Positions 25,964 through 42,026 of a stretch of DNA of 64,000 nt are shown here, piece by piece. The notes under the pieces were generated by a model. That model worked only from the letters and a program-made list of their open reading frames with translations, was not told the origin of the DNA and did no database searches. Each line of letters opens with the position of its first letter. Within the stretch, counting starts at the first letter, position 1. The stretch spans positions 544,001 to 608,000 of the forward strand of contig OZ242011.1 in assembly GCA_965204755.1 (NCBI GenBank), given 5' to 3'. This DNA comes from Candidatus Marinacidobacterium sp. (GTDB taxonomy: Bacteria; Acidobacteriota; Vicinamibacteria; Marinacidobacterales; Marinacidobacteraceae). A program made the position numbers and the translations under genes.

Positions 25964-26161
25964 ATGGCCGAGAAGAACCCCTGGAGCGGCTGGGTCTTGA
26001 TCCTGGTCGGCGTCGTCCTGCTGCTGCACAGTCTGGAAGTCGTGAGCCTGTGGGCCTTGTCCCGCTACTGGCCGCTGGTCCTCATCGCCGTCGGCGTCCG
26101 GCTGGTCGTCCAGGCGCGCGGCGGCCGGACCGGCGGCCCCCCTCCCCCGCCGGGCGCGTGA
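25964..26161 (+). CDS. Small LiaF/LiaI-like (DUF5668-type) membrane protein
   Basis: GWVLILVGVVLLL...YWPLVLIAVGV; SD GGAGG upstream. Confidence 0.7.
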   Translation: MAEKNPWSGWVLILVGVVLLLHSLEVVSLWALSRYWPLVLIAVGVRLVVQARGGRTGGPPPPPGA

Positions 26162-27930
26162 CCCCCGAAGGCGCGGCCGGTCCCCCCGGCGCGGCCGGCC
26201 GCCGGGGGGCCGGCGGCGGCTGCGCCACCGCCTTCGGGCTGGCGCTGATCCTCTTCGGCGGGTTCGCGCTGTGGGTGAACCTGGCGGGGGCGGACGCGCT
26301 GGTCGTCCTCCTGTCGCTCGCCCCGCTCCTCGCGGTGTGGTGGCCGGCGGCGCTGGTGCTCTGGGGGATCGGGAAGGTCGTCCAGCGGCTGGCCACCGGG
26401 CGGAGCCGGATGGGCGCGGGCGAGGTCGTCCTCCTGCTGCTCGTGGTGTTCCTCGGGCTGGCGCTGACCGGGGGACGGCGCCTGCTGGAGGGCCTGGGGC
26501 TGGAAGCGCGGTTCGGCGAAGTGCGGCACTGGGTCGCCGAGCAGGCGGAGCCGCTGCCCCAGCACGCCTTCGTCCGCGAACTCCGGGTGGCCCTGCCGGC
26601 GGAGGGGCCGGCGACGCTCGAGATCGAGTTGCCGGCGGGCGGGGTGATCGTGGAGGCGGTCCCGGCGCCGCCGGGCGGGGCGGAGGCGACCGCCGAAGGC
26701 GCGGGCGCGGCGGAGGCGACTGCCGAAGGCGGGGGCGCGGCGCGGCCGCGGGAGGCGGCGGTGCGGCTGGGGATCCGGGTGCGGGCCGCCGACCGGGCGC
26801 GGGCGGAGGCGCGGGCGGAGCGGATCCGGTTGGTGGAGACCCGGCCCGGCGGTCACCGGGACAGTGACCGGGACGGGGACCGCGGTGGGGACCAAGGCGT
26901 TGTCCGGATCGGGATCGAGGACGAGGGCGGGACCGAAGCCGCCTTCGACCTGACCGTGGAGGCGCCTCCCGGGATCGGGGTGTCGGCGGCCACCGACCGG
27001 GGGGCGGTGCGCATCCGGGGGGCGTTCGCCCGCGTCTCCGCCGAGACCGGCGGCGGGCCGGTGGCCGTCGAAGGGGCTCGGGCCGAAGTGTCCATCGTGG
27101 GGCGGGACGGGCCGGTGCGGGCGGAAGGGCTCGGCGGCGCGTTGACCGTCCGCGCCCGGCGGGCGCCGCTGACCGTGGAGGGGGTCGCCGGGGCGGTCTC
27201 GGTGGAGTCGTCGCGGGCGCCGATGTGGATCTCCTCGGTGGCCGGGCCGGTGACCGTCCGGGCGGACGGGGGGGCGGTGGAAGTCTCCGGGGCCGGGGGG
27301 GCGGTGGAGGTGGACGCGCGGCTCGCGCCGGTGTCGCTGGTCGGGGTGGAGGGCCGGGCGGAAGTGAGCGTGGAATACGGCGGGGTGTTCGCGGTCGGGG
27401 TGGCCGGGGCGCTGGATGTCCGGGCGGAGTCGGGCCGGGTGGAGGCGCGGGGGATCGGCGGCGGCGCGCGGATCACCGCGGGGGCGAAGCCGGTGCTGCT
27501 CGCGGACGCCGCCGGCGAGGTCTTCGTGCAGAGCGCGGGGGAGGCGGACCTGGATGTGCGGCTCGCGGGCGTGTCGGCGACAGGCGGGGCGACGGGCGGG
27601 TCGGCGACCGGCGAGTCGGCGACGGGCGAGCCCGCGTTCGGCGGGCCGGCGTTCGGCGGGCCGGTGACGCTGACGACCGGGGGCGGCGATGTCTGGCTGG
27701 AGTTGCCCCCGGCGGGGGCCTTCGCGCTGAGCGCGGAGGTGGCGGGCGCGGTCGGCGCGGGGGAGGTGGAGAGCGACGAGGCGCTCGGCGAGGTATCGCG
27801 GGTCGGGGAAGGCGGCGCGGCTCGGTGGACCGGGTTGCTCGGGACGGGGGGAGCGGGGGATCCGGCGCCGGTGTCCGTGCGCACCGGCGGGGGCGATTTC
27901 ACGATCCGCGCGGCGGGCCCGGAGCGATGA
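26158..27930 (+). CDS. DUF4097-type beta-strand repeat protein with N-terminal TM region
   Basis: Three N-terminal hydrophobic helices (WWPAALVLWG), then many G.V.V....G.V repeats; GTGA coupling. Confidence 0.72.
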   Translation: MTPEGAAGPPGAAGRRGAGGGCATAFGLALILFGGFALWVNLAGADALVVLLSLAPLLAVWWPAALVLWGIGKVVQRLATGRSRMGAGEVVLLLLVVFLGLALTGGRRLLEGLGLEARFGEVRHWVAEQAEPLPQHAFVRELRVALPAEGPATLEIELPAGGVIVEAVPAPPGGAEATAEGAGAAEATAEGGGAARPREAAVRLGIRVRAADRARAEARAERIRLVETRPGGHRDSDRDGDRGGDQGVVRIGIEDEGGTEAAFDLTVEAPPGIGVSAATDRGAVRIRGAFARVSAETGGGPVAVEGARAEVSIVGRDGPVRAEGLGGALTVRARRAPLTVEGVAGAVSVESSRAPMWISSVAGPVTVRADGGAVEVSGAGGAVEVDARLAPVSLVGVEGRAEVSVEYGGVFAVGVAGALDVRAESGRVEARGIGGGARITAGAKPVLLADAAGEVFVQSAGEADLDVRLAGVSATGGATGGSATGESATGEPAFGGPAFGGPVTLTTGGGDVWLELPPAGAFALSAEVAGAVGAGEVESDEALGEVSRVGEGGAARWTGLLGTGGAGDPAPVSVRTGGGDFTIRAAGPER

Positions 27931-28961
27931 ACGGCGGCGGTCGGGTCGGCCGGCGGGTGGGCCGGCGGGTCGGTCGGGGAATCGGTCGGGTCGGCCTTCG
28001 GCCCGCCGGGGGCGTCCGCGCGGCGCGGTTCGCCGGGGCGGCGGCAGTCCCGGCGGGAGTCCCGGCGGGAGTCACTGCGGGAGTCTTGGCCGCCGCGCTG
28101 GCGCTCGGGAGTTGCGGCTCGCGGGTCGAGGAGGAGTCGCGGGAGACCCTGCGCGAGACCGGCGCGTCGGCGCTGTCGGTGGAGTTGGACCGGGGGACGG
28201 TGGAAGTCGCCGGACACGCCGGGAGCGAAGTGGAGATCGAGGTCCACCGCGCCGCCCAGGGCTGGTCGCGGGAAGCGGCGCGTTCGTCGCTCGACGCGAT
28301 GCTGGTGGAAACGCGCCTCGACCCGGCGACCGGCGAGTTGACCGTCCGGGGCCGGACGGCGAACGCCGGGCTCTACCGGCCGGGCGAATCGCGGTCGCTC
28401 CGGCTGGAGGTCCGGGCGCCGGCCGGCCTCCCGCTGGAAGTGCGCACCGGCGACGGGCGGATCGAACTCGAAGGGCTGAGCGGGGCGGTCCGCGCCATGA
28501 CCGCCGACGGGCGGATCCGGGCGTCGAGCCTCGGCGCGGGCGGGGACGGCCCCCCGGCGCGGCTGCGCACCGGGAGCGGGCGCATCACCGCGGACGACCT
28601 CGAAGGCGCGGTGGTCGCCGAGACCGGGCGGGGGCGGATCCGGATCGAGGGCCGGCTGACGGAAGTTACGGCGGTCTCCGGTTCCGGCAACATCGTGGTG
28701 GAGGCGACCGGGGCCGGGTCGGCGCCGCGCGGGGTCTGGCGGCTCCGCGCCGGGGACGGCGATGTCCGGCTGCTCCTGCCGGAGGCGGCGTCGGCCTCGC
28801 TCTCGGTGGTCGCCGACCGCTGGACGACCGGGGAACGCAACACCCTCGCCTGGCGCCGCCGGGGCATCGCGCGGGTGGCGGAACTCGGGGACGGCGCCGG
28901 CGCCCGGATCCTGGTCCGCGCCGACGACGAGGCCGAAGTCTCCGTCGGCCCCCGCCGCTGA
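27927..28961 (+). CDS. DUF4097-type beta-strand repeat lipoprotein
   Basis: Lipobox LGSC; repeats TGDGRI / TADGRI / TGSGRI / SGSGNI; ATGA coupling. Confidence 0.72.
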   Translation: MNGGGRVGRRVGRRVGRGIGRVGLRPAGGVRAARFAGAAAVPAGVPAGVTAGVLAAALALGSCGSRVEEESRETLRETGASALSVELDRGTVEVAGHAGSEVEIEVHRAAQGWSREAARSSLDAMLVETRLDPATGELTVRGRTANAGLYRPGESRSLRLEVRAPAGLPLEVRTGDGRIELEGLSGAVRAMTADGRIRASSLGAGGDGPPARLRTGSGRITADDLEGAVVAETGRGRIRIEGRLTEVTAVSGSGNIVVEATGAGSAPRGVWRLRAGDGDVRLLLPEAASASLSVVADRWTTGERNTLAWRRRGIARVAELGDGAGARILVRADDEAEVSVGPRR

Positions 28962-29179: not shown

Positions 29180-30265
29180 ATGCCGGGAGCCGAAGACAGC
29201 GGCGAATCCACCGGAAGACGCGCAGCCCCGATGGGACGCTTGGCTGCCTCGAAACGACGCCGAACCCTCGTCGTTATCGCCATCCTGCTCGGCCCGATCG
29301 GGTGGGCAGCCTTGGCCATCATCCACTACCGGGAGCCCATCAGGGCTTTCTCCAAAAACGCTTGGCGCGCACTCGCAGACGCTGCCCGGTCGGCATTCGC
29401 CTTGTCGGGTCGAACCCCCTCGCCAGCGCCGGAATCACCGACTTCGTCGCCCACCGCTTGGGCGGACAGTTCCCCGGAACCGAGACCGCCCCGTGCTTCC
29501 GCGCCACAGCCAAAGGGCGCTTCACCGCCGTCCCCGACCCCCAAACCGGAGGACGAACACCTCCGGCGCTCCGGTGCCCCGCTCCCGAGCACGGCCCGCA
29601 CGGAGGCCCCGGAGTACACCGTCGCCAAAGCCATGGATCTCGACCTCCTCGACGACATCGAGGCGGCGCTCGCTCGGGCCCTCGCCGAGGGAACGACCGT
29701 CTCACAGTTCCAGAAGGACCTCGCTCCACTTCTCCAGCGGAAAGGCTGGTGGGGACAGAAGGAAGTGGTCGATCCGCGAACGGGCAGGCGGGTCACTGTC
29801 CAACTGGGCAACCCCGACCTTCTCCGCGCCATCTACCGGTCCAACATCCGCGCCGCCCGCACCGCGGGCGTTTGGGAGCGCGCCCAGCGCACCAAGGGGT
29901 CCCTCCCCTTCTTCCTCTACGAACTCGGACCGAGCAGACAACCGAGAAAAGAGCACAAAGCCTGGGCGGGCACGATGCTGCCGGTGGACGATCCGTGGTG
30001 GGACGACCACTTCCCGCCGAACGGCTGGGGCTGCAAGTGCAGGGTCCGCCAAATCAGCAAGCGCGAAGCCCAACGGCGGGGCGGCCCAACGACACGCCCC
30101 GCCCGGAAGCCGACGGAGTGGCTGGACCGCCGAACCGGAAGCGTCGTGATCGTGGACGCAGGTCTCGACCCCGCTTGGGCATCGAACACCGGAAAGACCG
30201 GGCGCCGGTTCTTCGGGTTCCTCGCTCATCATGAGCGGTTGACTTGGCAAATCGTTGAAAAATAA
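29180..30265 (+). CDS. Phage Mu gpF-like (MuF, minor head morphogenesis) domain protein with N-terminal hydrophobic helix and Pro-rich linker; start 29180 or 29231
   Basis: TVAKAMDLDLLDDI...FQKDLAPLLQRKGWWG...IYRSNIRAARTAGVW...R.EH.AW.G..LPVDDPWWDDHFPPNGWGCKCRV. Confidence 0.8.
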   Translation: MPGAEDSGESTGRRAAPMGRLAASKRRRTLVVIAILLGPIGWAALAIIHYREPIRAFSKNAWRALADAARSAFALSGRTPSPAPESPTSSPTAWADSSPEPRPPRASAPQPKGASPPSPTPKPEDEHLRRSGAPLPSTARTEAPEYTVAKAMDLDLLDDIEAALARALAEGTTVSQFQKDLAPLLQRKGWWGQKEVVDPRTGRRVTVQLGNPDLLRAIYRSNIRAARTAGVWERAQRTKGSLPFFLYELGPSRQPRKEHKAWAGTMLPVDDPWWDDHFPPNGWGCKCRVRQISKREAQRRGGPTTRPARKPTEWLDRRTGSVVIVDAGLDPAWASNTGKTGRRFFGFLAHHERLTWQIVEK

Positions 30266-30382
30266 GCCCATCGCATCCCGCGCTACGCCGGCGCGACTCG
30301 AAACGGCCCCGATCCGCCGGATCGCCAAAGAAGAGACGAGGTGGCGAGTCTCATTGCAAAGCAGAGTCATGTCGTTAGCATA

Positions 30383-30410
30383 TTGATAAATATTTACACA
30401 TTGTTATAAT
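30383..30410 (+). promoter_or_regulatory. Near-consensus sigma-70 promoter of the RM operon
   Basis: TTGATA, 16-nt spacer, TATAAT with extended -10 TGn, in a strongly AT-rich patch 9 nt before the TTG start at 30420. Confidence 0.75.
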
Positions 30411-30419
30411 GCCGACATC

Positions 30420-31109
30420 TTGCGCCTCTCCGAACTCGCCTCCGTCTCGCCGGGAATGGCCCGGTCGGGGCGGGGCGCCGGCGCCCGTCCGGGAGACTGG
30501 ATGCTGTCCCTCGTGGAGAGCCGGAACCTGCGGGGCGGCCGGCTCGATCTGGACGGCCTGCGCCGGGTGGGCGTCGTCCGGAACGCCTGGAGCGAGCGGC
30601 ACCTGCTGCGTCCCCACGATGTGCTGGTCACGGCGCGCGCCGAGTCCGTCCGGGTCGCGCTGACCCCGCCCGGCGTCTCCCGGACGGCGGCGGGGGCGAC
30701 GGTGCTCGTCGTCCGCGCCGGGGATCCGGGGTCGGGCCTCGCCCACTGGCTCCGGCTCTACCTCGGCTCCGGCGTGGGCCGGGCGCGGATCCTCCGGCGG
30801 ATGACCACCGGCGTCGCGACCCCGCTGCTCACCGCCGCCGCGCTGGGCGAGGTGGAAACGCCCGTCCCGTCGGCGCGGCGCCTCCGTACCATTCCCGCCC
30901 TCGTGGAGACCCTGGAAGCGGCGCGGGAGGCGGAGGTTCGGGCGAGCCTCGGCCGGGAGGCGCTGGTGGACGCGCTGGTCGCCGACCTCGGCGGCCCCGA
31001 CCGGAGGGACCCCGGCGCCGCCGGACGGGGCTCGGCTCTCGGGAAGCGGGAGTCGGGCGCCGCCGACCGGGTGGATTCCCCCGCCTGGGCGGCGCGGGGG
31101 ATGGACTGA
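30420..31109 (+). CDS. Half-size HsdS-like protein (single TRD plus helix)
   Basis: MRLSELASVSPG, LLRPHDVLV, WLRLYLGS..GR, LGEVETPVPS followed by a long helix; lies immediately 5' of hsdM. Confidence 0.65.
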   Translation: MRLSELASVSPGMARSGRGAGARPGDWMLSLVESRNLRGGRLDLDGLRRVGVVRNAWSERHLLRPHDVLVTARAESVRVALTPPGVSRTAAGATVLVVRAGDPGSGLAHWLRLYLGSGVGRARILRRMTTGVATPLLTAAALGEVETPVPSARRLRTIPALVETLEAAREAEVRASLGREALVDALVADLGGPDRRDPGAAGRGSALGKRESGAADRVDSPAWAARGMD

Positions 31110-31116
31110 GTCCGCC

Positions 31117-32697
31117 ATGCCGCTGAGCCAGAAGGAACTCGAGCAGAAACTCTGGCAGGCCGCCGACCTGCTCCGCGGGCAGATCGACGCCGCCGACTAC
31201 AAGAACTACATCTTCTCCATCCTCTACCTGAAGCGGCTGTCGGACCGCTTCGCGGAGGAAGTCGAGGAAGCGGTCCACGGCCCGGACCGCGTCCCGCGGG
31301 AGGCGGCGCTCTCCGACGCGGACGAGCACGAGTTCTTCGTCCCCGAAGAAGCCCGCTGGCCGGCGCTCACCGCGCCCGGCATGGCCCTCGGCGAGCGGCT
31401 GAACATGGCGAGCCACGCCGTCGAAGACGCGAACGACCGCCTCGAAGGCGTCCTCACCACGACGAATTGGAACGACGAGTCCAAACTCGGCAGCCCGGCC
31501 AACCGCGAACGCATCCTCCGCAGTCTGCTCGACCACTTCGGCGCGCTCGACCTGAGCGACCGGAACCTGGTCGGCGACGACGGCGCCGGCGCCGGGAATG
31601 TGCTCGGCGACGCCTACGAATACCTGATCCACCAGTTCGCCGACGACGCCGGCAAGAAAGGCGGCGAGTTCTACACGCCGCGTTCGGTCGTCCGCCTGAT
31701 CGTGGAGTTGCTGCGCCCGGAAGAGGGAATGCGCATCTGCGACCCCACCGCGGGGTCCGGCGGGATGCTCATCTTCACCGCGCAACATGTCGCGGAGCGG
31801 GGCGGCAATGTCGAGAACCTGACGCTCCACGGCCAGGAACGAAACCTCGGGACGCTCGCCGCCGGGAAACTCAACCTGCTGCTGCACGGGCTCCGCGCCG
31901 CGCGGCTCGAAGCCGGGGATGTGATCGCCGAACCGGGCCTGGTGGACCGGGAGGGCCGCCTGTTCGCCTACGACCGGGTGATCGCCAATCCCCCGTTCAG
32001 CCTGAAGAACTGGGGCCACGACTTCGCCCCCCACGACCCGCACCACCGGTTCGACCGGTACGGGGCGATCCCGCCCCGGACGCGCGGCGACCTGGCGTTC
32101 CTCCTCCACATGCTGGCGGTGACGAATCCCGGGGGAATGGTGGGCGTGGTGATGCCGCACGGCGTGCTCTTCCGGGGCGGCGCCGAAGGGAAGATCCGCC
32201 GGGGCATCGTCGAGGACGACCGGTTCGAGGCGGTGATCGGGCTCGCGCCCAACCTGTTCTTCGGCGCCGGCATCCCGGTGGCGGTGCTGGTGCTGAACCG
32301 CGCCAAACCGCCGGAGCGCCGGGGGAAGGTGCTGTTCGTGGACGCCGCGCAGCCGGAGTGCTTCCGCAAGGGCACGGCGCAGAACCATCTCGATCCGGAA
32401 CATGTTTCGCGGATCGCGGAGGCGTACCACGCCTTCGAGGAAGTGGAGCGGTTCGCCCATGTGGCCGACCGCGACGAAATCGCCGCCAACGACTTCAACC
32501 TGAACATCGCCAGGTATGTGGACACCTCCGAACCGCCGGAGGTGATGAGCGTCGAACGGGCGCTCGCCGAGTTGCGCGAAGCCGAACGCCGCCGCGAAGA
32601 AGCCGCGGCGAAGATGCATGCGCTCCTCGCGGAAATGGGCTTCACCGCGCCGGACGACTCCTCCGAGTCCGGCAAGCGCACGCCCGACAACCGCTGA
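31117..32697 (+). CDS. hsdM: Type I RM N6-adenine methyltransferase
   Basis: LWQAADLLRG, GEFYTP, DPTAGSGG (motif I), ANPPF (motif IV), PHGVLFRG, FNLNIARYV. Confidence 0.95.
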   Translation: MPLSQKELEQKLWQAADLLRGQIDAADYKNYIFSILYLKRLSDRFAEEVEEAVHGPDRVPREAALSDADEHEFFVPEEARWPALTAPGMALGERLNMASHAVEDANDRLEGVLTTTNWNDESKLGSPANRERILRSLLDHFGALDLSDRNLVGDDGAGAGNVLGDAYEYLIHQFADDAGKKGGEFYTPRSVVRLIVELLRPEEGMRICDPTAGSGGMLIFTAQHVAERGGNVENLTLHGQERNLGTLAAGKLNLLLHGLRAARLEAGDVIAEPGLVDREGRLFAYDRVIANPPFSLKNWGHDFAPHDPHHRFDRYGAIPPRTRGDLAFLLHMLAVTNPGGMVGVVMPHGVLFRGGAEGKIRRGIVEDDRFEAVIGLAPNLFFGAGIPVAVLVLNRAKPPERRGKVLFVDAAQPECFRKGTAQNHLDPEHVSRIAEAYHAFEEVERFAHVADRDEIAANDFNLNIARYVDTSEPPEVMSVERALAELREAERRREEAAAKMHALLAEMGFTAPDDSSESGKRTPDNR

Positions 32698-32710
32698 GGG
32701 CCTCGCTGGA

Positions 32711-34102
32711 ATGGCCTTGCCCGCACCGCCTCCCGAACCACCCGGCTCGGGGACCGGCGTCTCGGGAAGCGGACGCCGCAGGTCGCCCAATTTCGGGGAC
32801 GCAGCCGAACTTCTGGAGTTCTACGGGTGGCGTGAAAGCCGGGCGAACGGTCAGCGGATGTACCGGCATACCGTCGAGGCGGAAGAAGACGATCCCCGTC
32901 CCGCGCCCGAACCGGCCAAGCGCCGGGAACCGACCACCGAGCAGCGACCTCGGCGCCGACCCGCGCTCGTCGGTCAGCGCGGAGCGCTCGACCGGGAACG
33001 CCGGGAGTCGAGGCGCGCCTTTCCTGTCGTCGTGAAGCGCGGCCGCCGTGAATTCGGCGCGTACGCCCCGGAAGTCCCGGGGTCGTTCGTCGTCGAACGC
33101 ACCCCCGCCGACGCCCGGCGACGGGTCGAGGAGGCGATCGCAACGCATCTCCGGTTGCTCGGCGAGATGGGGGACGAACTTCCCGAACCGGACCCCGAAG
33201 TCGCCCGCGCGCTGGCCCGCGTCACCGATCCGGATTCGAGGCTTCCGCGCGACCCGAATGTCGAGGTCGTCACGGTGGAGGTCGGCCCGGAGGACGCTCC
33301 GCCCGACGCGCCGAGTAGCCCGCCGTCAGACCCGACGACTCCTCGGGAACCTCGGCGCGAGACCTTCGTGGCGATCCTCGGGAAGACCGCCAGGAACTAC
33401 TCCGGGGAGGCGCCCGACCTCGGCGCCTGTGTCGCCGCCGGCGACACGATGGACGAGTTGCGGTCGAAACTGGCGCGAGCGATCTCGGCCCATGTCCAGG
33501 CCATGGTGGACGACGGCGACCCCCTGCCCGAGCGCCGCCTTACCCCGGAGGAAGCCTTGGCGCAGCGAAGCGGAGGGCGCGGCGGCGACTCGGCCGGTCG
33601 GTCTGACCCCGACGAGGAGAGGGAGGTCGCGGAACTCCTGACCGTCGAGGTGCTGCCGCCCCGCCCGCAGGCCTTGGCGCTGAACGCACTGTGGCGCCGA
33701 TCGTGCCGGAACGAGTCTTCCTTCGAGGCGGACTGCGTCATACCGGCGCCGCTCGCGGCCGGCGAGACCTGGAGCGGCGCTTACGCCGCGGACCTCCTCT
33801 ACGCGGACGACATCTGGTACGGCCGGATCGCCGAGTGGCAGTACGCCGTAGAGACGGGCGAGAGCCGCGAAGAACTCCGCCGGAACCTGCAGGCCGCGGT
33901 CACCCGCGCCCTCCTCGAGTCCGTCGCCAACGACGGGACGATCCCCCTGCCTCGTCGCACGGCAGAGTCGGCGCTGGCCCAACGCCTTCTCCGCCGGGCC
34001 GGCAGGGGGAACGACGAGATCCTCGACCGCGACGAGGCCGTCGAGATGATTCCGGTCCGGATCACGGCGCCGGAAGCCGCCGTCTCGCGTCGAGGCGAAT
34101 GA
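32711..34102 (+). CDS. Triple HicB-like domain protein with HicA-like N-terminal remnant
   Basis: Three units: FPVVV..FGAYAPEVPGS, FVAIL..YSGEAPDLGACVAAGDTMDE, YAADL..WYGRI..GESREELRRNL, each ending in a (D/E/T)-(L/P/I)-P motif. Confidence 0.75.
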   Translation: MALPAPPPEPPGSGTGVSGSGRRRSPNFGDAAELLEFYGWRESRANGQRMYRHTVEAEEDDPRPAPEPAKRREPTTEQRPRRRPALVGQRGALDRERRESRRAFPVVVKRGRREFGAYAPEVPGSFVVERTPADARRRVEEAIATHLRLLGEMGDELPEPDPEVARALARVTDPDSRLPRDPNVEVVTVEVGPEDAPPDAPSSPPSDPTTPREPRRETFVAILGKTARNYSGEAPDLGACVAAGDTMDELRSKLARAISAHVQAMVDDGDPLPERRLTPEEALAQRSGGRGGDSAGRSDPDEEREVAELLTVEVLPPRPQALALNALWRRSCRNESSFEADCVIPAPLAAGETWSGAYAADLLYADDIWYGRIAEWQYAVETGESREELRRNLQAAVTRALLESVANDGTIPLPRRTAESALAQRLLRRAGRGNDEILDRDEAVEMIPVRITAPEAAVSRRGE

Positions 34103-35229
34103 CCGACGCGCCGCCTTTCGTTTCCGCGCCGGAGACGGGCCGAGCGTCCCGAGAGCGCAACTACCCGGTGATCGTCCGGCGCGGGGGCGGCCGGTATGGC
34201 GCGTACGCGCCGGAAGTGCCCGGTTCGTTCGTCACGGCCGCGACGGTCGAGGACGCCCGCCGCCTGGTGCGCGACGAGATCGCCTCGCGCCTCCGGCTGC
34301 TCCTCGAAATGTCCGAAGACGAAGTCCCGGAACCGGAAGCGGAGGTGCTGGACGCGCTGGCCGAAGCCACGAACCCGAACCTCGGCCACCCGGTGGACCC
34401 GAGCGTGCGCGTCCTGGTCGTCGAAGTGGGCCCGGAAGACGCGCCGCCCGATGCCCCCTCGGTTCCGCCGCGCGAACTCGCGGTCGCGAGAACCCATCGG
34501 CCTCGGCCGGAAACCTTCGCGGCCGTCTTCACCCGAGCGCCGGACGGGTATTCCGGCGAAGTCCCGGACCTGCCCGGCTGTCTCAGCATGGGCGACACGC
34601 TGGCGGACATGCGGCGCAACATGCGCGAGGCCATCCACCTCCATGTCCAGTCCTCGGTGGACGACCACGAGCCGGTCCCGCAGCGCCGCCGCTCCCCGGC
34701 GGAAGCGCTGGCTCACTACTACGAAGACGAGGACAACGATCCGGATAACCCGTACGAGACGGCCACCTCCGAACTCGTGACGGTACCCATCCTTCCGCCC
34801 CGCCCGCAAGCCCGTCTGCTGACCGCGATGTGGCGACGAGCCTGCCGCGACAGGGACGCTTTCGAGCGGGACTCCGCGGTATGGCATCCGATCGCGCCGG
34901 GCGCGTCGTGGAGCGGGACCTACGCCGCCGTCGTCCGTCCTCTCGACGATGTCCGGTGGGGCCACTTTCCGGATGTGGCTCGTTCCCTCGCCGCCGGTCC
35001 CACCCGCGCGGAACTCCGCCGGGAACTGCGGGCCGTCCTGGTCGAGCGTCTCTTCGAGATCTTGGCGGCGGAAGGCGCCATCCCCTTGCCCCGCCGGACG
35101 CCGGCGCTGGCGATGGCCGCGGACATCCTCCACAGCGCCGGACACGGCGGCCGGGTCTCGGAGCGGGAAGCCGCAACCGAGATGATCCCGGTGGAAATCA
35201 CGGCGCCCGGCGCCGGTGGCGCCAGTTGA
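34099..35229 (+). CDS. Triple HicB-like domain protein
   Basis: YGAYAPEVPGSFVTAATVEDA, YSGEVPDLPGCLSMGDTLADMRRNMREAI, WGHFPDV..GPTRAEL; ATGA coupling. Confidence 0.78.
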   Translation: MTDAPPFVSAPETGRASRERNYPVIVRRGGGRYGAYAPEVPGSFVTAATVEDARRLVRDEIASRLRLLLEMSEDEVPEPEAEVLDALAEATNPNLGHPVDPSVRVLVVEVGPEDAPPDAPSVPPRELAVARTHRPRPETFAAVFTRAPDGYSGEVPDLPGCLSMGDTLADMRRNMREAIHLHVQSSVDDHEPVPQRRRSPAEALAHYYEDEDNDPDNPYETATSELVTVPILPPRPQARLLTAMWRRACRDRDAFERDSAVWHPIAPGASWSGTYAAVVRPLDDVRWGHFPDVARSLAAGPTRAELRRELRAVLVERLFEILAAEGAIPLPRRTPALAMAADILHSAGHGGRVSEREAATEMIPVEITAPGAGGAS

Positions 35230-35316
35230 CGCGCCCGAACCGAACAACGACCTTGCCCTCACAACGCTTCGCGCCCGTCCTCCTCCGGGACCGGCGCCTA
35301 CCGCGGGTGGGGGCGT

Positions 35317-35523
35317 ATGTCGAAAAAGGTCCGTGACATCGTCAAGATCTTGAAGAAACACGGCTGGAGGCTCGACTACATCGAGGGGAGCCACCACCAC
35401 TACACTCACCCGACGATCCCCGACAAGGTCTCGGTCCCCGGCACCCGCAACAAGGACTTGGGGGTGGGTCTCTGGCAACGCATCATGAAGCAGGCGCAGA
35501 TCCCGCGCAGCGAGTGGCCATGA
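35317..35523 (+). CDS. hicA: HicA family mRNA interferase toxin
   Basis: 68 aa, basic; KVRDIVKILKKHGW...GSHHHYTHP...VSVP...DLGVG...IMKQA. Confidence 0.9.
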   Translation: MSKKVRDIVKILKKHGWRLDYIEGSHHHYTHPTIPDKVSVPGTRNKDLGVGLWQRIMKQAQIPRSEWP

Positions 35524-36590
35524 AGCAGACCTTCGCCATCGTCGTCGAACGCGCCCCGAACGGCTACGGGGCGTACGCGCCGGACCTGCCGGCCTCCTTC
35601 GTCACCGCGGAGACTCTCGAAGGCGCCTTCCGCGGCGCGAGGGCGGCCCTGGCTTCCTATCTCCGCCTCTTCGCGGAGATGGGAGACCGGCTGCCGCAGC
35701 CGCGCCCGGAAACCGCGCCGGCGCTGGAACGCGCCAACCGAACGGCGGCGGGCAGCCCCGCCGACCCGGGCGTCCGCGTCCTGCTCGCGGAAATCGGGCC
35801 CGACGACGCGCCGCCGTCGCCGCGCTCCCTCCGGCCGCTGACGCCGCCCGCTTCGCCCCGCCGACGAGAGACCTTCGCGGTCGTGTTCGAGTCCGGCGAC
35901 AACGGCTTCGGCGCCTATTGCCCGGATCTTCCCGGCTGCGTCAGCATCGGGGACACGGACGGCGAAGCCCGCGAGACGATGCGCGCCGGACTCGCGGACT
36001 TCGTCCAGCGCCTGGTGGACGACGGCGAACCGGTCCCGACGAAGCGGCTGTCCGTCGAAGCGGCGCTGGCGGCCCACCACCGGGAATACGGAACCGCCGA
36101 CTCGCCTCCGGACGACGGGCGGGTTTTCGCCGAGCCGATCACCGTGGAAGTGCGGCCGCCCCGCCCCGGCGCCCGGCGACGGCGCGAACTGTGGCGCGAC
36201 GCGCACCGCCGGAGGATCGAGTTCGAGGAACGCGCCTCCCCGACCGCGCCGCTCGCCCCCGGCGCCTGTCGCTGCGACGCTTGGGCCGCCGTCTTCGAGA
36301 CGGCCGCCGACGGGGTGACCGCCCATGTCCCGGACCTGCCGGCCTGCCGCGCCGAGGGAGGAAGCCCGGAAGTCGCCCGCGCCCGCCTCCGCGACGCCAT
36401 CGCCGATCACCTGGAACGGCGGCGCGAGGCCGAGGGCGTGATACCCCTGCCCCGACGGACGCCGACCCGGGCGCTGGCTCACCACCACCGGGAGTGCGTG
36501 GAGTACGGACTCGAAGTCCCGGACCCCGACGCGACCGTCGAGTTGATTCCGGTCGAAGTCGCTGCCCCGTCCATCGCCTGCGCCAGTTGA
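35520..36590 (+). CDS. Triple HicB-like domain protein (cognate antitoxin position)
   Basis: ATGA-coupled to hicA; YGAYAPDLPASFVTAETLEGA, FGAYCPDLPGCVSIGDTDGEA, VTAHVPDLPACRAEGGSPEVA; no recognisable HTH/RHH. Confidence 0.82.
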   Translation: MKQTFAIVVERAPNGYGAYAPDLPASFVTAETLEGAFRGARAALASYLRLFAEMGDRLPQPRPETAPALERANRTAAGSPADPGVRVLLAEIGPDDAPPSPRSLRPLTPPASPRRRETFAVVFESGDNGFGAYCPDLPGCVSIGDTDGEARETMRAGLADFVQRLVDDGEPVPTKRLSVEAALAAHHREYGTADSPPDDGRVFAEPITVEVRPPRPGARRRRELWRDAHRRRIEFEERASPTAPLAPGACRCDAWAAVFETAADGVTAHVPDLPACRAEGGSPEVARARLRDAIADHLERRREAEGVIPLPRRTPTRALAHHHRECVEYGLEVPDPDATVELIPVEVAAPSIACAS

Positions 36591-37834
36591 CGCGGACACC
36601 GAACGCCCTGCCGGACGGCTGGGCCGTCGTTCCGCTGCAGGAAATCGCCGAAGTGGCGTTCAGCGGGGTGGACAAGAAGACCGTGGACGGAGAGGTCCCG
36701 GTCGCGCTCTGCAACTACACGGATGTCTTCTACAACCGCCGGATCCACGGTCGGCTGGACTTCATGTCCGCGACCGCGACCCCGGCGGAGATCGGGCGCT
36801 GGTCGCTCCGGAAGGGCGATGTCCTCTTCACGAAGGACTCCGAGACCCCGGACGAAATCGGCGTCCCGGCCTATGTCGAGGAAGACTTGCCCGGCGTCCT
36901 CTGCGGCTACCACCTGGGCCGGGCCCGGCCGCTCCCCGGTCGGGTGGACGGCGCGTTTCTCGCCGCGTCCCTGCGTACTTCCCGCGCCCGGCAACACTTC
37001 GCCCGCATCGCGAACGGCGTAACCCGCTTCGGCCTGACACTCGGCGCGACCCGCGGTTTCCCCGTCCCGCTGCCGCCCATGAGCGAACAGCGCCGCATCG
37101 CGACGATGCTCGACTCTGTTGATCGCACCATCAACGAGACCTCCGCCCACATGGGCGCCGTAGAGAGATTTCGCGAAGGGCTGCGCCACGGACTCCTGAC
37201 AACCCACGCCGCCTGCGACAAATGGCGTGTTCGCCCACTCCGAAGTGTCGCCTCCATCGGCGCAGGCGATCCCGCGCCCCAGGACCCTGGAGACTTCGAG
37301 GGAGGCAGTCGTCCCTTCGTGCGGACGGCGGATGTCGGTCGCGTTCGACGATCCGCGGCATTCCGCGGCTCGCGAGACCGTCTCACCGACGACACGGTTC
37401 GACGGCGGCGTATGCGCCTGTGGCCGGCGGGAACGATCCTCGTTCCGAAAAGCGGCGCATCCCTCACCCTCAACAATCGTGTGCGCCTCGCAGAGCCCGC
37501 CTACGCATCATCCCATCTCGCGACGGCCCGAGCCCGTCCCGGGACCGACGGCGCCTTCCTCTACCACGCACTCTGCCACCTGGATGCACGGCGCCTGATG
37601 GGCAATGCCGGCTATCCCTCGCTTAGTCTCGAAGACTTGGGATCCGCACCGGTGCCTGTTCCCGCACTTTCCGCACAGCGGTCCATCGCCAGAGCGCTCG
37701 GCCGCGTCGAACGAGCCATCACGGAAGTTGCGGGACTCGTGGCCTCGTTGGGTCGATTTCGGGAAGCCCTTGGGCACGACCTCTTGACCGCCGGCCGGTC
37801 TCGTGTCCAGAGAGAGGAGAGAAGATGCCGTTAG
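36587..37834 (+). CDS. hsdS: Type I RM specificity subunit (two TRDs)
   Basis: TTGA-coupled; LPDGWAVVPL, PLPPMSEQRRIA, W.VRPL, PVPALSAQRSIA, GLRHGLLT / ALGHDLLT conserved regions. Confidence 0.9.
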   Translation: MTRTPNALPDGWAVVPLQEIAEVAFSGVDKKTVDGEVPVALCNYTDVFYNRRIHGRLDFMSATATPAEIGRWSLRKGDVLFTKDSETPDEIGVPAYVEEDLPGVLCGYHLGRARPLPGRVDGAFLAASLRTSRARQHFARIANGVTRFGLTLGATRGFPVPLPPMSEQRRIATMLDSVDRTINETSAHMGAVERFREGLRHGLLTTHAACDKWRVRPLRSVASIGAGDPAPQDPGDFEGGSRPFVRTADVGRVRRSAAFRGSRDRLTDDTVRRRRMRLWPAGTILVPKSGASLTLNNRVRLAEPAYASSHLATARARPGTDGAFLYHALCHLDARRLMGNAGYPSLSLEDLGSAPVPVPALSAQRSIARALGRVERAITEVAGLVASLGRFREALGHDLLTAGRSRVQREERRCR

Positions 37835-37969
37835 CGACACGACGCCCCTTCCCTTCCCGAGGGGAAGGAGCGAGAGCATCTTGTCGGTGACTTCCGAGGG
37901 CTATGCCATGGCCGATGGCGACAAGCGACAACAGCAGGGGGTCGAACACCACTGGGAGCGAGACCGACG

Positions 37970-40900
37970 ATGACACCGAGGGCGAGAGAACGAACGGTGG
38001 CCGAAAGGCCTGCGGAAGGGCTGCTCAGCGCGCTGGGCTGGCAGCAAGTAGAGGCTGCAGCGCTGGGCGCCGAACGCGGCGGCGATCGCGATGTGCTGCT
38101 CCGCGGGCGCCTTCGGGCTGCGCTGCTGCGGCTCAACGAGTGGATGGGGCAAGCGGAGGCCGAGCGGGTGGTCGGGCGGTTGGGGCGGGAGGAAGGGGCC
38201 GGGATCGCGGAGAACCGGCGGGTGCATGAACTGTTGATCTACGGGATGCCGTTCGACGCGGAGGGGCCCGGAGGGCGGCGGACGCGGACGGTGCGGTTCT
38301 TCGACTTCGAGCATCCGACCGGGGGGCGGAACGAGTTTCTCGTCGCCACGCAGTTCCGGGTGGCCGGGCCGAAGGACTCCGTGATCCCCGACCTGGTGCT
38401 GTTCGTGAACGGGATTCCGCTGGTGGTGATGGAGGCGAAGTCGCCGACGATCGGGCCCCGGTGGAAGACGGAAGCGGTGGAGCAACTGCTCCGGTACCAA
38501 GGGGCCGGGCGCTACCGGGGGAAGGGCGCGCCGGATCTCTTCCGCTACAACCTGCTGTCCGTGGCGCACTGCGGGACGAGGGCGGCGTATGGCGCGGTCG
38601 GAGCCGGGGAGGACGGGTATGCGGAGTGGAAGTCCGTGGCGCCGTTCACCGAAGACGAAGCGCGGGAGCGGTTCGGGGTGGAACCCGCGGGGCAGGCGCG
38701 GCTTATCGTCGGGCTGCTGTCGCCCGCCGCCGTGCTCGAAGTGCTGCGGGACTTCGTGCTCTTCGAGCCGGAGCGCGGCCGCCTCGTCAAGAAACTGCCG
38801 CGTTACCAGCAATACCGGGCCGTCGGGAAGGCGCTGGAGCGGATCCGGTCCGGGGGGCGACCGAAAGAGCGCGGCGGGGTGATCTGGCATACCCAGGGAT
38901 CGGGCAAGTCGCTCACCGCGTTCTGGCTGGCGACGAAACTGCGGCGCGATCCGGCGCTCGGGAACGCGACGATCCTGGTGGTCACCGACCGGCGGCAACT
39001 CGACCGGCAGATCGCGGAGACCTTCGACCGCTGCGGCTTCCCGGCCCCGAAGCCGGCGAAGAGCGGGAAACACCTGGCGGAGTTGCTGACCGAAGGGCGC
39101 GGGCGCACGGTGATGACGACGATCCAGAAGTTCGAGGAGGCGCTGCCCGCGGGGGAGCGGGCGACCGCCGCGCTCGACGCCTCGGACGAAGTGGTGGTCA
39201 TGGTGGACGAAGCGCACCGCACGCAGTACGGGACGCTCGGCGCGCTCCTTTCGCAGGCCCTGCCCCGCGCGGCGCTGATCGGGTTCACCGGGACTCCCAT
39301 CGACGACGGGTTCCGGCGCAGCACGATGGGGCGGTTCGGGCCGCTCATCGACCGGTACTCCATCGAGCAGGCGGTCGAGGACGGCGCGACGGTGGAGATC
39401 CGCTACGAAGCGCGGCTGCCGGAGTTGGCGGTCGCCGGGCCGAACACGCTCGACCGCATCTTCGACGCGATGTTCCGGGACGAACCGGAGGAAGTGCGGG
39501 AGGAGATCCGCCGGAAGTACGCCGGCAGGGAATCCGTCGCGGAGGCGAGTCAGCGGATCCGGACGATCGCGCTCGACATCGCGGACCACTTCGGGAAGCA
39601 CATCCGCCCGAACGGGTTCAAGGCGCAGGTCGTCGCGCCGAGCCGGAAGGCGGCGCTCCGGTACCGCGAATACCTGAACGACTGCGGGGTGAAGGCCTAC
39701 GCCGTCATCACGGTGGACCGGAGCGACGGGCCGGAGTTCGATGCGGCGCGGGACATTTCCGAAGAGGAGATCGTCTCCGCGTTCAAGAATCCCGAAGGGG
39801 AACCGGAAGTCCTCGTCGTCGTGGACAAACTCCTCACCGGTTTCGACGCGCCGGTGGAGCAGGCGCTCTACCTCGACCACCCGCTGCGCGAACACGCGCT
39901 GCTCCAGGCCGTCGCGCGGGTGAACCGCCGGTTCCGCCACGACTGGAACGGCGCGGCGACCGAGAAGACCTACGGCCTGGTGGTGGACTACTGCGGGGTT
40001 TCGGCGAACCTGGAACAGGCGCTGTCCGCGTTCTCGCCGGCCGATGTGCGCCGGGCGATGCTGCCGAACGACGAGGAAGACCCGGCCGCGGTCATCGAAG
40101 CCGCCGCGGTCCGCGCCGAGTCCCGCTTCGAGGGACGGGCGCTCGACGATCCGGTCGGCGCGGCGTTGGTCTTCGCCGGCGATTCCGGGTCGGCGGACGG
40201 GTTCCGCGCGGAATCGTTCGAGCGGTTCGAAGCGGACTGCCGCACCTTCGCGCGGTTGATGGACCGACTCCTGCCCGACCCGCGCGCGCTCGCGTACCGG
40301 GATCGCCTCGCGCGGCTCACCGCGATCCGGCAAGTCGTCCGGGCGCAATACCTGCGGGAGGACGCGGCGGCGAACCGGGCGGAGATCGGGGCGAAGGTGC
40401 GGCGGCTGCTCGACGAACACATCGGCGCCGAAGTGCGCGGGCTGATGGCGCCGGTCTCCATACTCGCCGGGGACTTCGAGGAGAAGATCGCGGCGCTGCC
40501 CCACGACGAGGCGCGGGCGTCGCTGATGGAGCACGCGATCCGGGCGGAGATCAACGAGCGCCTCGCGGAGAACCGCGCCTACTACGAGAAGTTGTCGGAG
40601 AAACTGGCCCGCATCATCCGCGAACTGCGGGAGCAGGTGATCGACGCCGCCGAAGCGGTGCGGCGGCTGCGGGAACTGGGCGGCGAAGTCCGGAGCGAAG
40701 CGGACGCGGCGCGGGCGAGCGGGCTGACGGCGTTTTCCTATCCGGTGTTCCAACTGCTGGAGCGGACGCCGCTGGAGTCCGGGCCGGGCCTGGTGACCGG
40801 CGAAGTCGCGCCGGCGCCGGGGCCGGACGAGCGGCGGAAGAGCGCCGCCGAAGGAATCGAAGCCGTCGTCGCGCGATACCAGCGGTTCGTGGACTGGCAG

Positions 40901-41035
40901 TCGAACGAGGAGGCGCTGCGGCGGATGCGCCGGGAGATCAAGCGGCTGCTGCGCCGCCACGGGTTGCCGGAGTTGCATCTCGACCGGGTGACGGTGCAGG
41001 TCGTGGAGGTCGCGCGGCGCCGGTCGGCGGGGTGA
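37970..41035 (+). CDS. hsdR: Type I RM restriction subunit
   Basis: PDLVLFVNGIPLVVMEAK nuclease motif, WHTQGSGKS, DEAHR, GFTGTP, LLTGFDAP, QAVARVNR. Confidence 0.95.
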   Translation: MTPRARERTVAERPAEGLLSALGWQQVEAAALGAERGGDRDVLLRGRLRAALLRLNEWMGQAEAERVVGRLGREEGAGIAENRRVHELLIYGMPFDAEGPGGRRTRTVRFFDFEHPTGGRNEFLVATQFRVAGPKDSVIPDLVLFVNGIPLVVMEAKSPTIGPRWKTEAVEQLLRYQGAGRYRGKGAPDLFRYNLLSVAHCGTRAAYGAVGAGEDGYAEWKSVAPFTEDEARERFGVEPAGQARLIVGLLSPAAVLEVLRDFVLFEPERGRLVKKLPRYQQYRAVGKALERIRSGGRPKERGGVIWHTQGSGKSLTAFWLATKLRRDPALGNATILVVTDRRQLDRQIAETFDRCGFPAPKPAKSGKHLAELLTEGRGRTVMTTIQKFEEALPAGERATAALDASDEVVVMVDEAHRTQYGTLGALLSQALPRAALIGFTGTPIDDGFRRSTMGRFGPLIDRYSIEQAVEDGATVEIRYEARLPELAVAGPNTLDRIFDAMFRDEPEEVREEIRRKYAGRESVAEASQRIRTIALDIADHFGKHIRPNGFKAQVVAPSRKAALRYREYLNDCGVKAYAVITVDRSDGPEFDAARDISEEEIVSAFKNPEGEPEVLVVVDKLLTGFDAPVEQALYLDHPLREHALLQAVARVNRRFRHDWNGAATEKTYGLVVDYCGVSANLEQALSAFSPADVRRAMLPNDEEDPAAVIEAAAVRAESRFEGRALDDPVGAALVFAGDSGSADGFRAESFERFEADCRTFARLMDRLLPDPRALAYRDRLARLTAIRQVVRAQYLREDAAANRAEIGAKVRRLLDEHIGAEVRGLMAPVSILAGDFEEKIAALPHDEARASLMEHAIRAEINERLAENRAYYEKLSEKLARIIRELREQVIDAAEAVRRLRELGGEVRSEADAARASGLTAFSYPVFQLLERTPLESGPGLVTGEVAPAPGPDERRKSAAEGIEAVVARYQRFVDWQSNEEALRRMRREIKRLLRRHGLPELHLDRVTVQVVEVARRRSAG

Positions 41036-41793
41036 GCGAGCGGGATCGGCTCCGCCTCGACGGCGCGGTCGTCGAGTACGAGATCCGGCGCAGCGGCCGC
41101 CGGCGGAAGACGGCGCGGATCGCGGTGGACGGGGGGCGGGTGGTGGTCACCGCGCCGGAGGCGATGCCGGTCGACGAGATCCGGGAGGTGGTGTGGCGGC
41201 GGCGGGCCTGGATCCGGCGGAAACGGGAGGCGCCCGCGCCGGAGGCGGCGCCCCCGAAGCGGTTCGTGAGCGGGGAGACGCTGCCCTACCTGGGGCGGAA
41301 TGTGCGGCTCGTCGTCGAGGACGGGGGGGCGGGGTCGGCGCCGGCGGACGGGGGGCGGCGGGCGCCGATCCGGTTCGACCATTGGCGGCTGCGGGTGGCC
41401 GCGCCGGCGGGGCTGGAAGCGGGCGAGCGGGCGGAGTTCGCGCGGGGCGCGGTGATCGCCTGGTTCCGGGAACGCGCCGCCGACCGGGTGGGGGCGAGCG
41501 TGGCGCGGTACCTGCCGCGGTTCGGGCGGACGGAGGCGCCGCCGGTGCTCATCCGCGACCAGCGGAAGCGCTGGGCGAGTTGCGCGCCGGGAGGGGCGCT
41601 GCGGTTCAACTGGCGGGTGGCGATGCTGCCGCCGGCGCTCCTCGACTATGTGGTGGCGCACGAACTCGCGCACCTGGCGCTCCCCGACCACTCGCCGGCG
41701 TTCTGGGCCCACCTGGCGGGCGCGATGCCGGACTGGCGCGAACGCCGGCGGCAACTGCGCGAGTTGGGGCCGTCGCTGCCGCTCGGGCCGTAG
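41032..41793 (+). CDS. YgjP/DUF45 (M48-like) zinc metallohydrolase, common hsdR neighbour
   Basis: SGETLPYLG, RWASC, FNWR, DYVVAHELAHL, HSPAFW; GTGA coupling. Confidence 0.88.
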   Translation: MSERDRLRLDGAVVEYEIRRSGRRRKTARIAVDGGRVVVTAPEAMPVDEIREVVWRRRAWIRRKREAPAPEAAPPKRFVSGETLPYLGRNVRLVVEDGGAGSAPADGGRRAPIRFDHWRLRVAAPAGLEAGERAEFARGAVIAWFRERAADRVGASVARYLPRFGRTEAPPVLIRDQRKRWASCAPGGALRFNWRVAMLPPALLDYVVAHELAHLALPDHSPAFWAHLAGAMPDWRERRRQLRELGPSLPLGP

Positions 41794-41811
41794 GGCCGCG
41801 AGTCCGCGGCC

Positions 41812-42026
41812 TGTCAACCGGCGCCGAAAATGTCCCACTTTCAAGCAACGAAAACGCCCCACCTCGGGGAGTGTCGAGAGACACCAACTCTTACGCCGTT
41901 GGGAGACACCGACTTTTGGGCGCCCGGAGGCGGCGGAGGGGAGGAGGGGAGGAGGGGTCCGGCGGGTCGTGTCAACGGGCCGCGAATAGTGGACAGAAAT
42001 GGGATCCGAAAAGTGGACACTTTTCG
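41812..42026. mobile_element. Three stacked IS21-family-like terminal sequences, no transposase
   Basis: Three TGTC-initiated ~50-bp segments (41812, 41872, 41970), each with an internal direct repeat: CGAAAAtgtCCCAC/CGAAAAcgcCCCAC; GAGACACCaACT/GAGACACCgACT; CGAAtAGTGGACA/CGAAaAGTGGACA. Confidence 0.6.

Follow-up and report, generated by a model that had tools for sequence, protein, structure and literature searches.

Canonical HicAB toxin-antitoxin modules, such as those of Escherichia coli K-12 (6HPB), Burkholderia pseudomallei (6G26) and Yersinia pestis (HicA3-HicB3; 4P78), comprise a small basic HicA toxin with a Gly-x-His motif, followed by an overlapping hicB gene. In the B. pseudomallei toxin, Gly22 and His24 are needed for toxicity (PMC3969222). 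In the classification of Gerdes, autoregulating HicB proteins (classes 3-5) possess a ribbon-helix-helix (RHH), helix-turn-helix (HTH) or Phd/YefM domain, and classes 1 and 2 are described as single-domain HicB proteins without a DNA-binding domain (PMC10865869). Genes embedded in type I restriction-modification (R-M) systems are reported to be frequent (10.1101/2024.01.29.577857). We analysed a 64-kb window (64,000 nucleotides; positions 544,001 to 608,000 of contig OZ242011.1) from Candidatus Marinacidobacterium sp., a marine, sponge-associated acidobacterium. All coordinates given below are positions in this window. The window contains a type I R-M operon in which hsdM is separated from hsdS by one intact hicA gene and three genes (A, B and C), each encoding a protein with three HicB-like domains (triple-HicB; domains D1, D2 and D3). 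On balance, the locus is probably a lineage-specific HicA/HicB type II toxin-antitoxin cassette, inserted at this site, tandemly amplified, partly decayed and coupled to the operon.

The hicA-C pair was compared with the described HicAB types. It shares with the canonical modules the small basic HicA and the overlapping hicB that follows it, and the N-terminal fold of canonical HicB matches D2 and D3 at Z 8.3-10.7. It departs from them in having three HicB folds per chain, no RHH or HTH domain, a tandem array with orphan antitoxins, and a position inside an hsd operon. Unlike the HicB proteins of Gerdes classes 3-5, A, B and C contain none of the three DNA-binding domain types. Class 1 has the same hicA-hicB order and a HicB without a DNA-binding domain, but that HicB is a single domain of 67-97 aa. 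Class 7 HicB has two HicB-like (DUF1902) domains and no DNA-binding domain; the order is hicB-hicA and the examples are gammaproteobacterial. Class 8 HicB (331-356 codons, order hicB-hicA) has three domains, one of unknown type, one LysRS-like and one HicB, and no DNA-binding domain; only its C-terminal domain has the HicB fold and its example is from the archaeon Thermococcus (classes as described in PMC10865869). The window genes have the order hicA-hicB and three HicB folds, and gave no DUF1902 Pfam match. The original prediction had not recognised this architecture among described systems; none of the 14 HicA classes set out by Gerdes joins hicA to a triple-HicB gene (PMC10865869). A literature search returned no toxin-antitoxin reported 'between hsdM and hsdS' and no report of a three-HicB-domain protein. 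HicA and HicB are not named in the main text of 10.1101/2024.01.29.577857, whose supplementary embedded-family lists may include HicAB.

The setting resembles that of two other embedded toxins. DarTG2 of enteropathogenic E. coli is likewise a toxin-antitoxin pair between hsd genes, in the type I R-M RRDM island and under the island promoter, and its embedding site has been proposed as a recombination hotspot (PMC12255303). As described there, it differs in its toxin (a DNA ADP-ribosyltransferase), its position between hsdS and hsdR, its single copy and its dedicated repressor, RptR. An RptR-like regulator was not found at the window locus. PrrC of EcoprrI is also an RNA-cleaving effector embedded in a type I R-M locus (PMC12707154; 10.1101/2024.01.29.577857). 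PrrC is an ABC-ATPase-nuclease restrained by the R-M enzyme, whereas the toxin here has its own protein antitoxin. The window genes share the embedding; their domains are HicA and HicB, no ABC-ATPase or anticodon nuclease was found among them, and PADLOC gave no match for HicA, A, B or C.

The operon occupies 30.4-41.8 kb on the + strand and reads half-HsdS, hsdM, A, B, hicA, C, hsdS, hsdR, ygjP (Table 1). Its type I R-M membership follows from hsdM, hsdS and hsdR at one locus, with Pfam and PADLOC matches and all frames open. The predicted order and coordinates of the hsdM-to-hsdS section were correct, as were the two coupled junctions: the start of C overlaps the end of hicA (ATGA), and the hsdS start overlaps the stop of C (TTGA). 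In addition, the B start codon overlaps the TGA of A (ATGA), and 87 nt separate B from hicA.

Table 1. Positions of the hicA/triple-HicB array and of the hsd operon that contains it.
Feature	Position	Strand	Basis or remark
Promoter-like sigma-70 site (TTGATA-16 nt-TATAAT with TG)	30383..30410	+	Candidate operon promoter; consensus match only
Half-size HsdS-like specificity gene, 229 aa	30420..31109	+	PADLOC Specificity_I E 1.9e-8
hsdM, type I methyltransferase	31117..32697	+	Pfam N6_Mtase E 9.8e-93, HsdM_N E 7.4e-24; PADLOC MTase_I E 8.5e-140
Decayed cassette head: degenerate leader and hicA relic, in frame with gene A	32698..33007	+	
Gene A, triple-HicB	ORF from ATG 32711..34102; conserved core 33008-34102	+	True start uncertain
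Gene A domains	A1 33008-33292; A2 33347-33664; A3 33674-34075	+	
Gene B, triple-HicB, 376 aa, without own hicA	34099..35229	+	B1 34153-34437; B2 34498-34803; B3 34813-35211
Conserved hairpin in the leader, 3' end 2 nt upstream of the hicA ATG	35255..35314	+	RNAalifold on 4 leaders
hicA, intact toxin gene, 68 aa, isoelectric point (pI) 10.2	35317..35523	+	PF07927 E 9.4e-19; G24-S25-H26
Gene C, triple-HicB, 356 aa, pI 5.5, cognate partner of hicA	35520..36590	+	
Gene C domains	C1 35520-35804; C2 35856-36164; C3 36174-36572	+	
hsdS, full-size specificity subunit, TTG start	36587..37834	+	Methylase_S E 7.8e-17, 2 stretches; PADLOC Specificity_I E 5.4e-47
hsdR, type I restriction/translocase subunit	37970..41035	+	SWI2_SNF2 E 2.6e-73, HSDR_N, T1RH-like_C; PADLOC REase_I E 6.6e-130
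YgjP-like metallopeptidase, last gene of the hsdM-S-R-ygjP operon	41035..41793	+	PF01863 E 2.8e-51

HicA scored 67.7 bits against PF07927 (cut-off 27) and 66.9 bits in the scan of the whole 3.98-Mb genome, where it was the sole HicA match. Its net charge is +6.9. The G24-S25-H26 motif is invariant in 5/5 aligned HicA proteins.

A, B and C are paralogues alignable over their full length, B being 49% and C 40% identical to A. The alignment shows the common linker motifs and the position-wise correspondence of domains that had been predicted. Mean pairwise identity per domain is only 50-60%. The D1, D2 and D3 domains of each protein were scanned singly against Pfam (PF15919 cut-off 27 bits). D2 matched PF15919 at E 8.1e-8 (A), 1e-11 (B) and 1.2e-8 (C). 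D1 matched at E 1.1e-5 (A1), 6.6e-5 (B1) and 2e-6 (C1), corresponding to 23.5-28.4 bits, with two of the three just below the cut-off. All D3 hits were sub-threshold (UPF0150 E 0.014, 0.17 and 0.01; PF15919 E 0.0014 for C3). Domain profiles were then compared by hhalign, having been built from seven copies in the window and in a sister genome. D3 aligned with D2 at 98.8% probability (E 1.4e-16, 99 columns) and D1 with D2 at 98.4% (E 8.1e-15). Against PDB sequences, the D2 and D1 profiles found HicB 6g1c (E 2.8e-6 and 1e-4, respectively), and the D3 profile found only the HicB-fold proteins 2dsy (0.008) and 2yzt (0.043).

The AlphaFold2 model of C (pLDDT 89.5, pTM 0.79; 21-row alignment) comprises three strand-strand-strand-helix-helix-strand repeats, with a long helix (residues 216-239) ahead of the third. 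The ten best PDB matches to this model in Foldseek were all HicB. VIA-align placed nine HicB or HicB-fold entries at residues 114-218 (D2) with Z 8.4-10.5, the best being 6g1n and 6g1c. Because each chain appears only at its best domain in an alignment of the full model, D3 was also modelled alone (pLDDT 91.2; 26-row alignment). This model superposed on B. pseudomallei HicB (6g1c_B) with Z 10.7 and a root-mean-square deviation of 2.1 Å over 85/86 residues. Nine HicB-fold entries scored Z 8.2-10.7, against 4.3 or less for unrelated rows. In Foldseek, its top ten comprised nine entries labelled HicB and 3kwr (probability 1.00, best E 2.4e-3). No whole-protein analogue was found among 48,161 PDB representatives. 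All nine domains of A, B and C are HicB-like, the profile and model comparisons being decisive for D3 and supportive for D1. The original expectation that a profile scan would recover three HicB domains per gene held for D2 and for part of D1, which pass Pfam; D3 stayed below threshold and its homology comes from hhalign and the model. That only one domain per gene would be HicB was not what was found.

The predicted lack of a DNA-binding domain was borne out: no HTH, RHH or Phd/YefM Pfam family matched A, B or C at E <= 0.01, and in the C model nothing remains for such a domain beyond the three HicB folds and the linker helix. The triple-HicB proteins are acidic (pI 4.8-5.5), with D2 the most acidic domain (-8 to -11). 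The inter-domain linkers of C (35805-35855 and 36165-36260) are strongly basic (pI 12.0 and 11.7; approximately +4 each); those of A and B are not. Six of the eight triple-HicB genes in the window and sister genomes share a cassette end consisting of the same C-terminal residues, AGTTGA and a CCGAAC-like stretch (window 35224-35250 and 36582-36606). Gene A and gene L5 of the sister genome are the exceptions. The shared AGTTGA implies a potential TTG start overlapping the stop in each such cassette, as at the hsdS junction. The notion that this 3' end is a copy of the hsdS start was set aside, since the two have too few letters in common to carry the argument.

Searches for further triple-HicB proteins were made at several scales. 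A word-based search returned 18 clusters, all metagenomic (356-427 aa), each with 100% query coverage. Contigs of equal length hint that different types may sit together on a single contig. An exhaustive hmmsearch of 1.84 billion representative proteins returned 4,918 matches at E <= 0.001, and the three-domain architecture at E <= 1e-30 in only 3 clusters. Two matched stretches were present in 26 of the 150 best hmmsearch matches, and two PF15919 domains in 9/10 such proteins tested. Two-domain HicB proteins (for example, P0021, P0026, P0058 and P0142; 147-257 aa) therefore exist and likewise carry PF15919 in tandem, but they have two domains and resemble A, B and C at the level of the domain only (E 1e-22 or weaker, versus 1e-102 to 1e-160 within the family). 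From the hmmsearch and the domain scans, the three-domain form is confined to this family. Among 400 other genomes of the phylum, searched with a stricter first-pass filter, 89 contained short single-domain matches and none a full-length match. A JGI metagenome scan gave 8 loci, all with partial single-domain matches. No relatives were present among 79 pattern matches in viral contigs. One plasmid record and one phage record were obtained, in both of which only D2 matched a single-domain HicB. In the sequences searched, the architecture has to date turned up in no other lineage.

To define the operon without the array, eight related operons from family and order relatives were compared (hsdM 54-57% identical). 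In 8/8, hsdR begins within 1.35 kb after hsdM, with only hsdS or a remnant between them. Three of the eight have a truncated hsdR. In 5/8 (L055, L056, L057, L059 and L061) ygjP follows hsdR. A tblastn search of the eight operons with HicA, A, B and C gave no match. From hsdM to hsdR the window spans 5.3 kb and the sister genome 8.9 kb. With hsdM and hsdS contiguous in all eight relatives, it follows that the array was inserted.

Strains differ in copy number. Contigs from four public runs were aligned to 30300-38300 with a likeness threshold of 85%. A and B are present in runs X2 and X5. In runs X4 and X6, from two studies, a contig joins the hsdM stop (32697 and 32695, respectively) to the hicA leader (35248 and 35249), with 2-5 other letters between. 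The evidence for the joint consists of contigs, with 30-32 letters on the sides of the joint. In X4, depth at the joint was 344, compared with approximately 300-960 over hsdM, approximately 470-500 over C and 8-98 over the A-B stretch; a minor contig (depth 6.6) was identical to the window over 32668-35618. In X6, depth at the joint was 27.3 versus 5-22 over A-B. Extra 'joints' in X6 that arose from one contig matching paralogous genes were left uncounted. Read with the depth profiles, the dominant strains of these two studies carry hicA-C only. The core unit is therefore hicA with a triple-HicB gene of the type of C (clade II, below), and A and B are accessory copies. The triple-HicB copy number is 1, 3 or 5 depending on the strain.

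The sole other genome in the species collection that encodes the family (L034) is of the same genus. Its locus, syntenic with the window (hsdM 86% identical), reads hicA1 - L1 - L2 - hicA2 - L3 - hicA3 - L4 - L5 - hsdS - (DUF3644) - hsdR, and its three HicA genes are intact and retain G-S-H, while its five triple-HicB genes, L1 to L5, all have open frames. Every HicA match (1 in the window genome, 3 in L034) and every triple-HicB match (3 and 5) lies inside the hsd locus, in agreement with the predicted R-M association. In both genomes hsdS starts within the stop codon of the last triple-HicB gene. C overlaps hicA, A follows a decayed hicA (below), B has no hicA of its own, and three of the five L034 triple-HicB genes directly follow a hicA. 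In a tree of 28 proteins, two clades were separated with 100/100 support. Clade II contains C, L1 and L5; clade I contains A, L2-L4 and B. Within clade I, A groups with L2-L4 on a long end branch (0.52), and B is 96% identical to the metagenomic P0018. The hicA types match the clades of their neighbours: the window hicA and hicA1 precede genes of clade II (C, L1), and hicA2, hicA3 and the decayed copy precede genes of clade I (L3, L4, A). The DUF3644 gene of L034 (15518-16456, + strand; E 3.7e-29) lies between hsdS and hsdR, and the window operon is without it; a second slot of the hsd operon thus also accepts inserts.

The region ahead of the gene A core contains the remains of a toxin gene. 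The 300 nt from hsdM to the core can be aligned to the L034 hicA genes and their leaders. An EFYGW stretch is kept, in the part that corresponds to the initial helix and strand of HicA, and the remainder has drifted. G-S-H has become G-Q, with loss of the catalytic His, and the start ATG has become AGG. Neither a Pfam scan for HicA (E <= 1) nor BLASTP against the window HicA matched the relic; it is recognisable solely against the hicA2 type of L034. GC content at the three codon positions is flat across the relic (0.79/0.63/0.74), whereas A, B and C show a coding pattern (third-position GC 0.84-0.87). From this alignment, the lost G-S-H and the flat codon-position GC, A is an antitoxin gene behind a decayed toxin gene. 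Codons 1 to approximately 99 of its open reading frame (32711-33007) are relic hicA sequence and not HicB. The core begins at 33008 with no start codon near, and translation of A may start at 32711, at ATG 32858 or elsewhere.

A second case of toxin decay is suggested by metagenomic 427-aa forms, namely P0007 and five more (P0212-P0215 and P0217) among the 15 members listed of an 18-member cluster. Their N-terminal extension carries G-S-H and then departs from HicA. Compared with alternative reading frames of L034 hicA1, the extension appears to us to be a frameshifted hicA read into the triple-HicB gene. The break is probably real, because more than one assembly shows it, alongside 360-aa members of that cluster.

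A conserved stretch of approximately 75 nt precedes every hicA and is degenerate ahead of the relic. It folds as a hairpin of approximately 60 nt with a purine-rich 3' arm. In the RNAalifold consensus of four leaders, 20 pairs form and compensatory changes occur at 2 of these. The window leader has a minimum free energy of -37 kcal/mol (z -2.94), with 1/200 shuffles as stable. Paired cells amounted to 96.3%, versus 44-56% with partners slid. The structure is plausible and conserved on these figures, and we take the hairpin to cover the hicA ribosome-binding site. The leaders were also considered as attC-like recombination sites. This was rejected: there was no sign of an integrase, and unequal crossing-over is accounted for by the homology of the cassettes.

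Expression signals were sought by consensus and pattern scans of 30000-42000. The site at 30383-30410 matches 11/12 consensus positions and is the sole such site in this interval (shuffle mean 0.3). No terminator-like site was found on the + strand. The half-HsdS encoded just downstream is 70% identical to its syntenic L034 counterpart and gave no Pfam match. NCBIfam contained no family for HicA, A, B, C, half-HsdS or YgjP, and the window had no Rfam match.

Genes outside the hsd operon are mostly housekeeping and do not form a large defence island. A Phage_Mu_F-like domain protein (E 7e-15; 29300-30265, + strand) is encoded directly upstream of the operon promoter. GC content is approximately 0.78-0.80 at 24-29 kb and falls to approximately 0.66-0.72 over 29-41 kb, which hints at acquisition of the whole hsd block. 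Approximately 10 kb upstream of the operon are genes for two paralogous large proteins (16804-18984 and 20654-22231, + strand), each with an AAA_22/AAA_16 ATPase and a C-terminal PD-(D/E)XK nuclease domain (PDDEXK_9); they may constitute another defence-type pair. Two large Gly/Ala/Arg-rich repeat proteins (26050-28961, + strand) are syntenic with L034 855-3826 (53-57% identity). In L034 these gave weak DUF4097 'toastrack' matches (E 1.5e-4 and just under cut-off), and in the window only a weak DUF3060 match was obtained. Elsewhere in the genome are two more hsdM-like genes (C1:3723496-3725049 and C1:1158715-1160286), 33-38% identical to the operon hsdM, each with one in-frame TGA within the matched stretch.

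Taking the locus as a toxin-antitoxin cassette, its operation can be proposed as follows. One cassette would consist of the approximately 60-nt leader hairpin, a hicA encoding a basic, mRNA-cleaving Gly-x-His toxin, and an overlapping gene for an acidic triple-HicB antitoxin. As the cassettes have no repressor of their own, they would be transcribed from the hsd operon promoter, and without a DNA-binding domain they would lack the autorepression and conditional cooperativity found in E. coli. The hairpin over the ribosome-binding site would hold HicA output low. Up to three toxin-binding folds per antitoxin chain would provide antitoxin sites in excess without autoregulation. Were operon expression stopped, by loss or disruption of the locus or by phage host shut-off, degradation of the antitoxin would free HicA and arrest translation. 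HicA released in this way may stabilise the operon, back it up by abortive infection, or both. Over time, copies diverge into the two old clades and toxins decay first, leaving orphan antitoxin genes; in the window these are A, behind its dead hicA, and B, without one. Gene overlap, cognate type pairing and decay of the toxin with the antitoxin kept are features usually seen where a type II pair is functional.

Several points weigh against this proposal. Only two genomic contexts could be read, and no PADLOC model matches HicA or the triple-HicB proteins. We infer both the binding of HicA by the triple-HicB domains and the lability of the antitoxin. Within the full model of C, D1 gave only matches resembling double-stranded RNA-binding domains (Z 3-4; each chain is listed once, at its best domain). 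Co-transcription with hsd is suggested by consensus scans, and the leaders could hold promoter types outside those scans. Covariation in the leader is not significant, with 55/500 shuffles of the four sequences attaining the observed score. Throttled translation of hicA would also throttle the coupled triple-HicB gene unless the latter has initiation of its own. The repeated decay of toxins, and the fact that A and B can be dispensed with, would equally suit a selfish element that is a cost to its host.

The best surviving alternative is a selfish hitch-hiker in decay, in which addiction modules are lost piecemeal with no gain to the host, and the extra triple-HicB genes are leftovers or anti-addiction copies against incoming HicA. 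The toxin relic upstream of A, the recurrence of broken hicA-triple-HicB fusions in the 427-aa forms, the strain-to-strain differences in copy number, the long end branch of A and the mostly housekeeping surroundings would all be expected of it. The antitoxin genes themselves tell otherwise. All eight in the two genomes are open throughout, the 20 metagenomic representatives examined are all full-length at 40-98% identity, and residues are invariant in all three domains. Together with the coding-like codon-position GC of A, B and C, the open frames and invariant residues suggest that the orphans are under purifying selection and not in free decay. The site and the pairing of hicA with clade II are also conserved across both species. 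We consider the hitch-hiker reading unlikely, and the most serious competitor to the operon-coupled cassette.

The original prediction had raised a diversified sensor or decoy panel that releases HicA upon phage infection or R-M inhibition, or else an array able to neutralise many HicA variants. In the guard reading considered here, diverged HicB domains would be sensors of, or decoys for, phage proteins or the state of the HsdM/HsdS/HsdR complex, and would release HicA under inhibition of restriction in the manner of PrrC. Its appeal lies in the fixed type I operon site in 2/2 genomes, the precedents of PrrC (PMC12707154) and DarTG2 (PMC12255303), the old and diverged paralogues (two clades at 100/100, all frames open) and the low identity between corresponding domains. 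Nothing found here supports it; the data fit amplification, divergence and toxin decay. Contact with Hsd proteins is without support here, a full panel is dispensable given that the dominant strains of two studies lack both A and B, and A follows a dead toxin gene, as expected from cassette decay and not from a designed panel. A PrrC-like ATPase or nuclease and a PADLOC match for HicA or triple-HicB are both lacking, and canonical HicB neutralises HicA directly, without a sensor role. Such a panel is quite improbable. Slimmer still are the prospects of a multivalent antitoxin with divided roles, one fold capping HicA and the others reading the restriction complex or binding phage factors. If true, the array would be a diversifying guard whose mRNA-cleaving toxin is unleashed by a block of the type I enzyme or by silencing of the operon, a protein-antitoxin analogue of PrrC with a built-in repertoire.

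[quoted passage not shown]

As a toxin-antitoxin cassette, the locus is of a general kind already known; what is new is how the antitoxin is built, its occurrence in an array that includes orphan copies, and the position between hsdM and hsdS. Because the family is very small and restricted to uncultured marine symbionts, the locus is of limited general importance unless its multivalent antitoxin proves to sense. It would extend, by a HicA module, the few toxin systems that lie within type I operons, the setting of PrrC and DarTG2. Cassette amplification, divergence, toxin loss and orphan antitoxin persistence are displayed in one place. HicAB biology rests on one-fold, self-repressing antitoxins, and this locus may offer a natural alternative that is directly testable.

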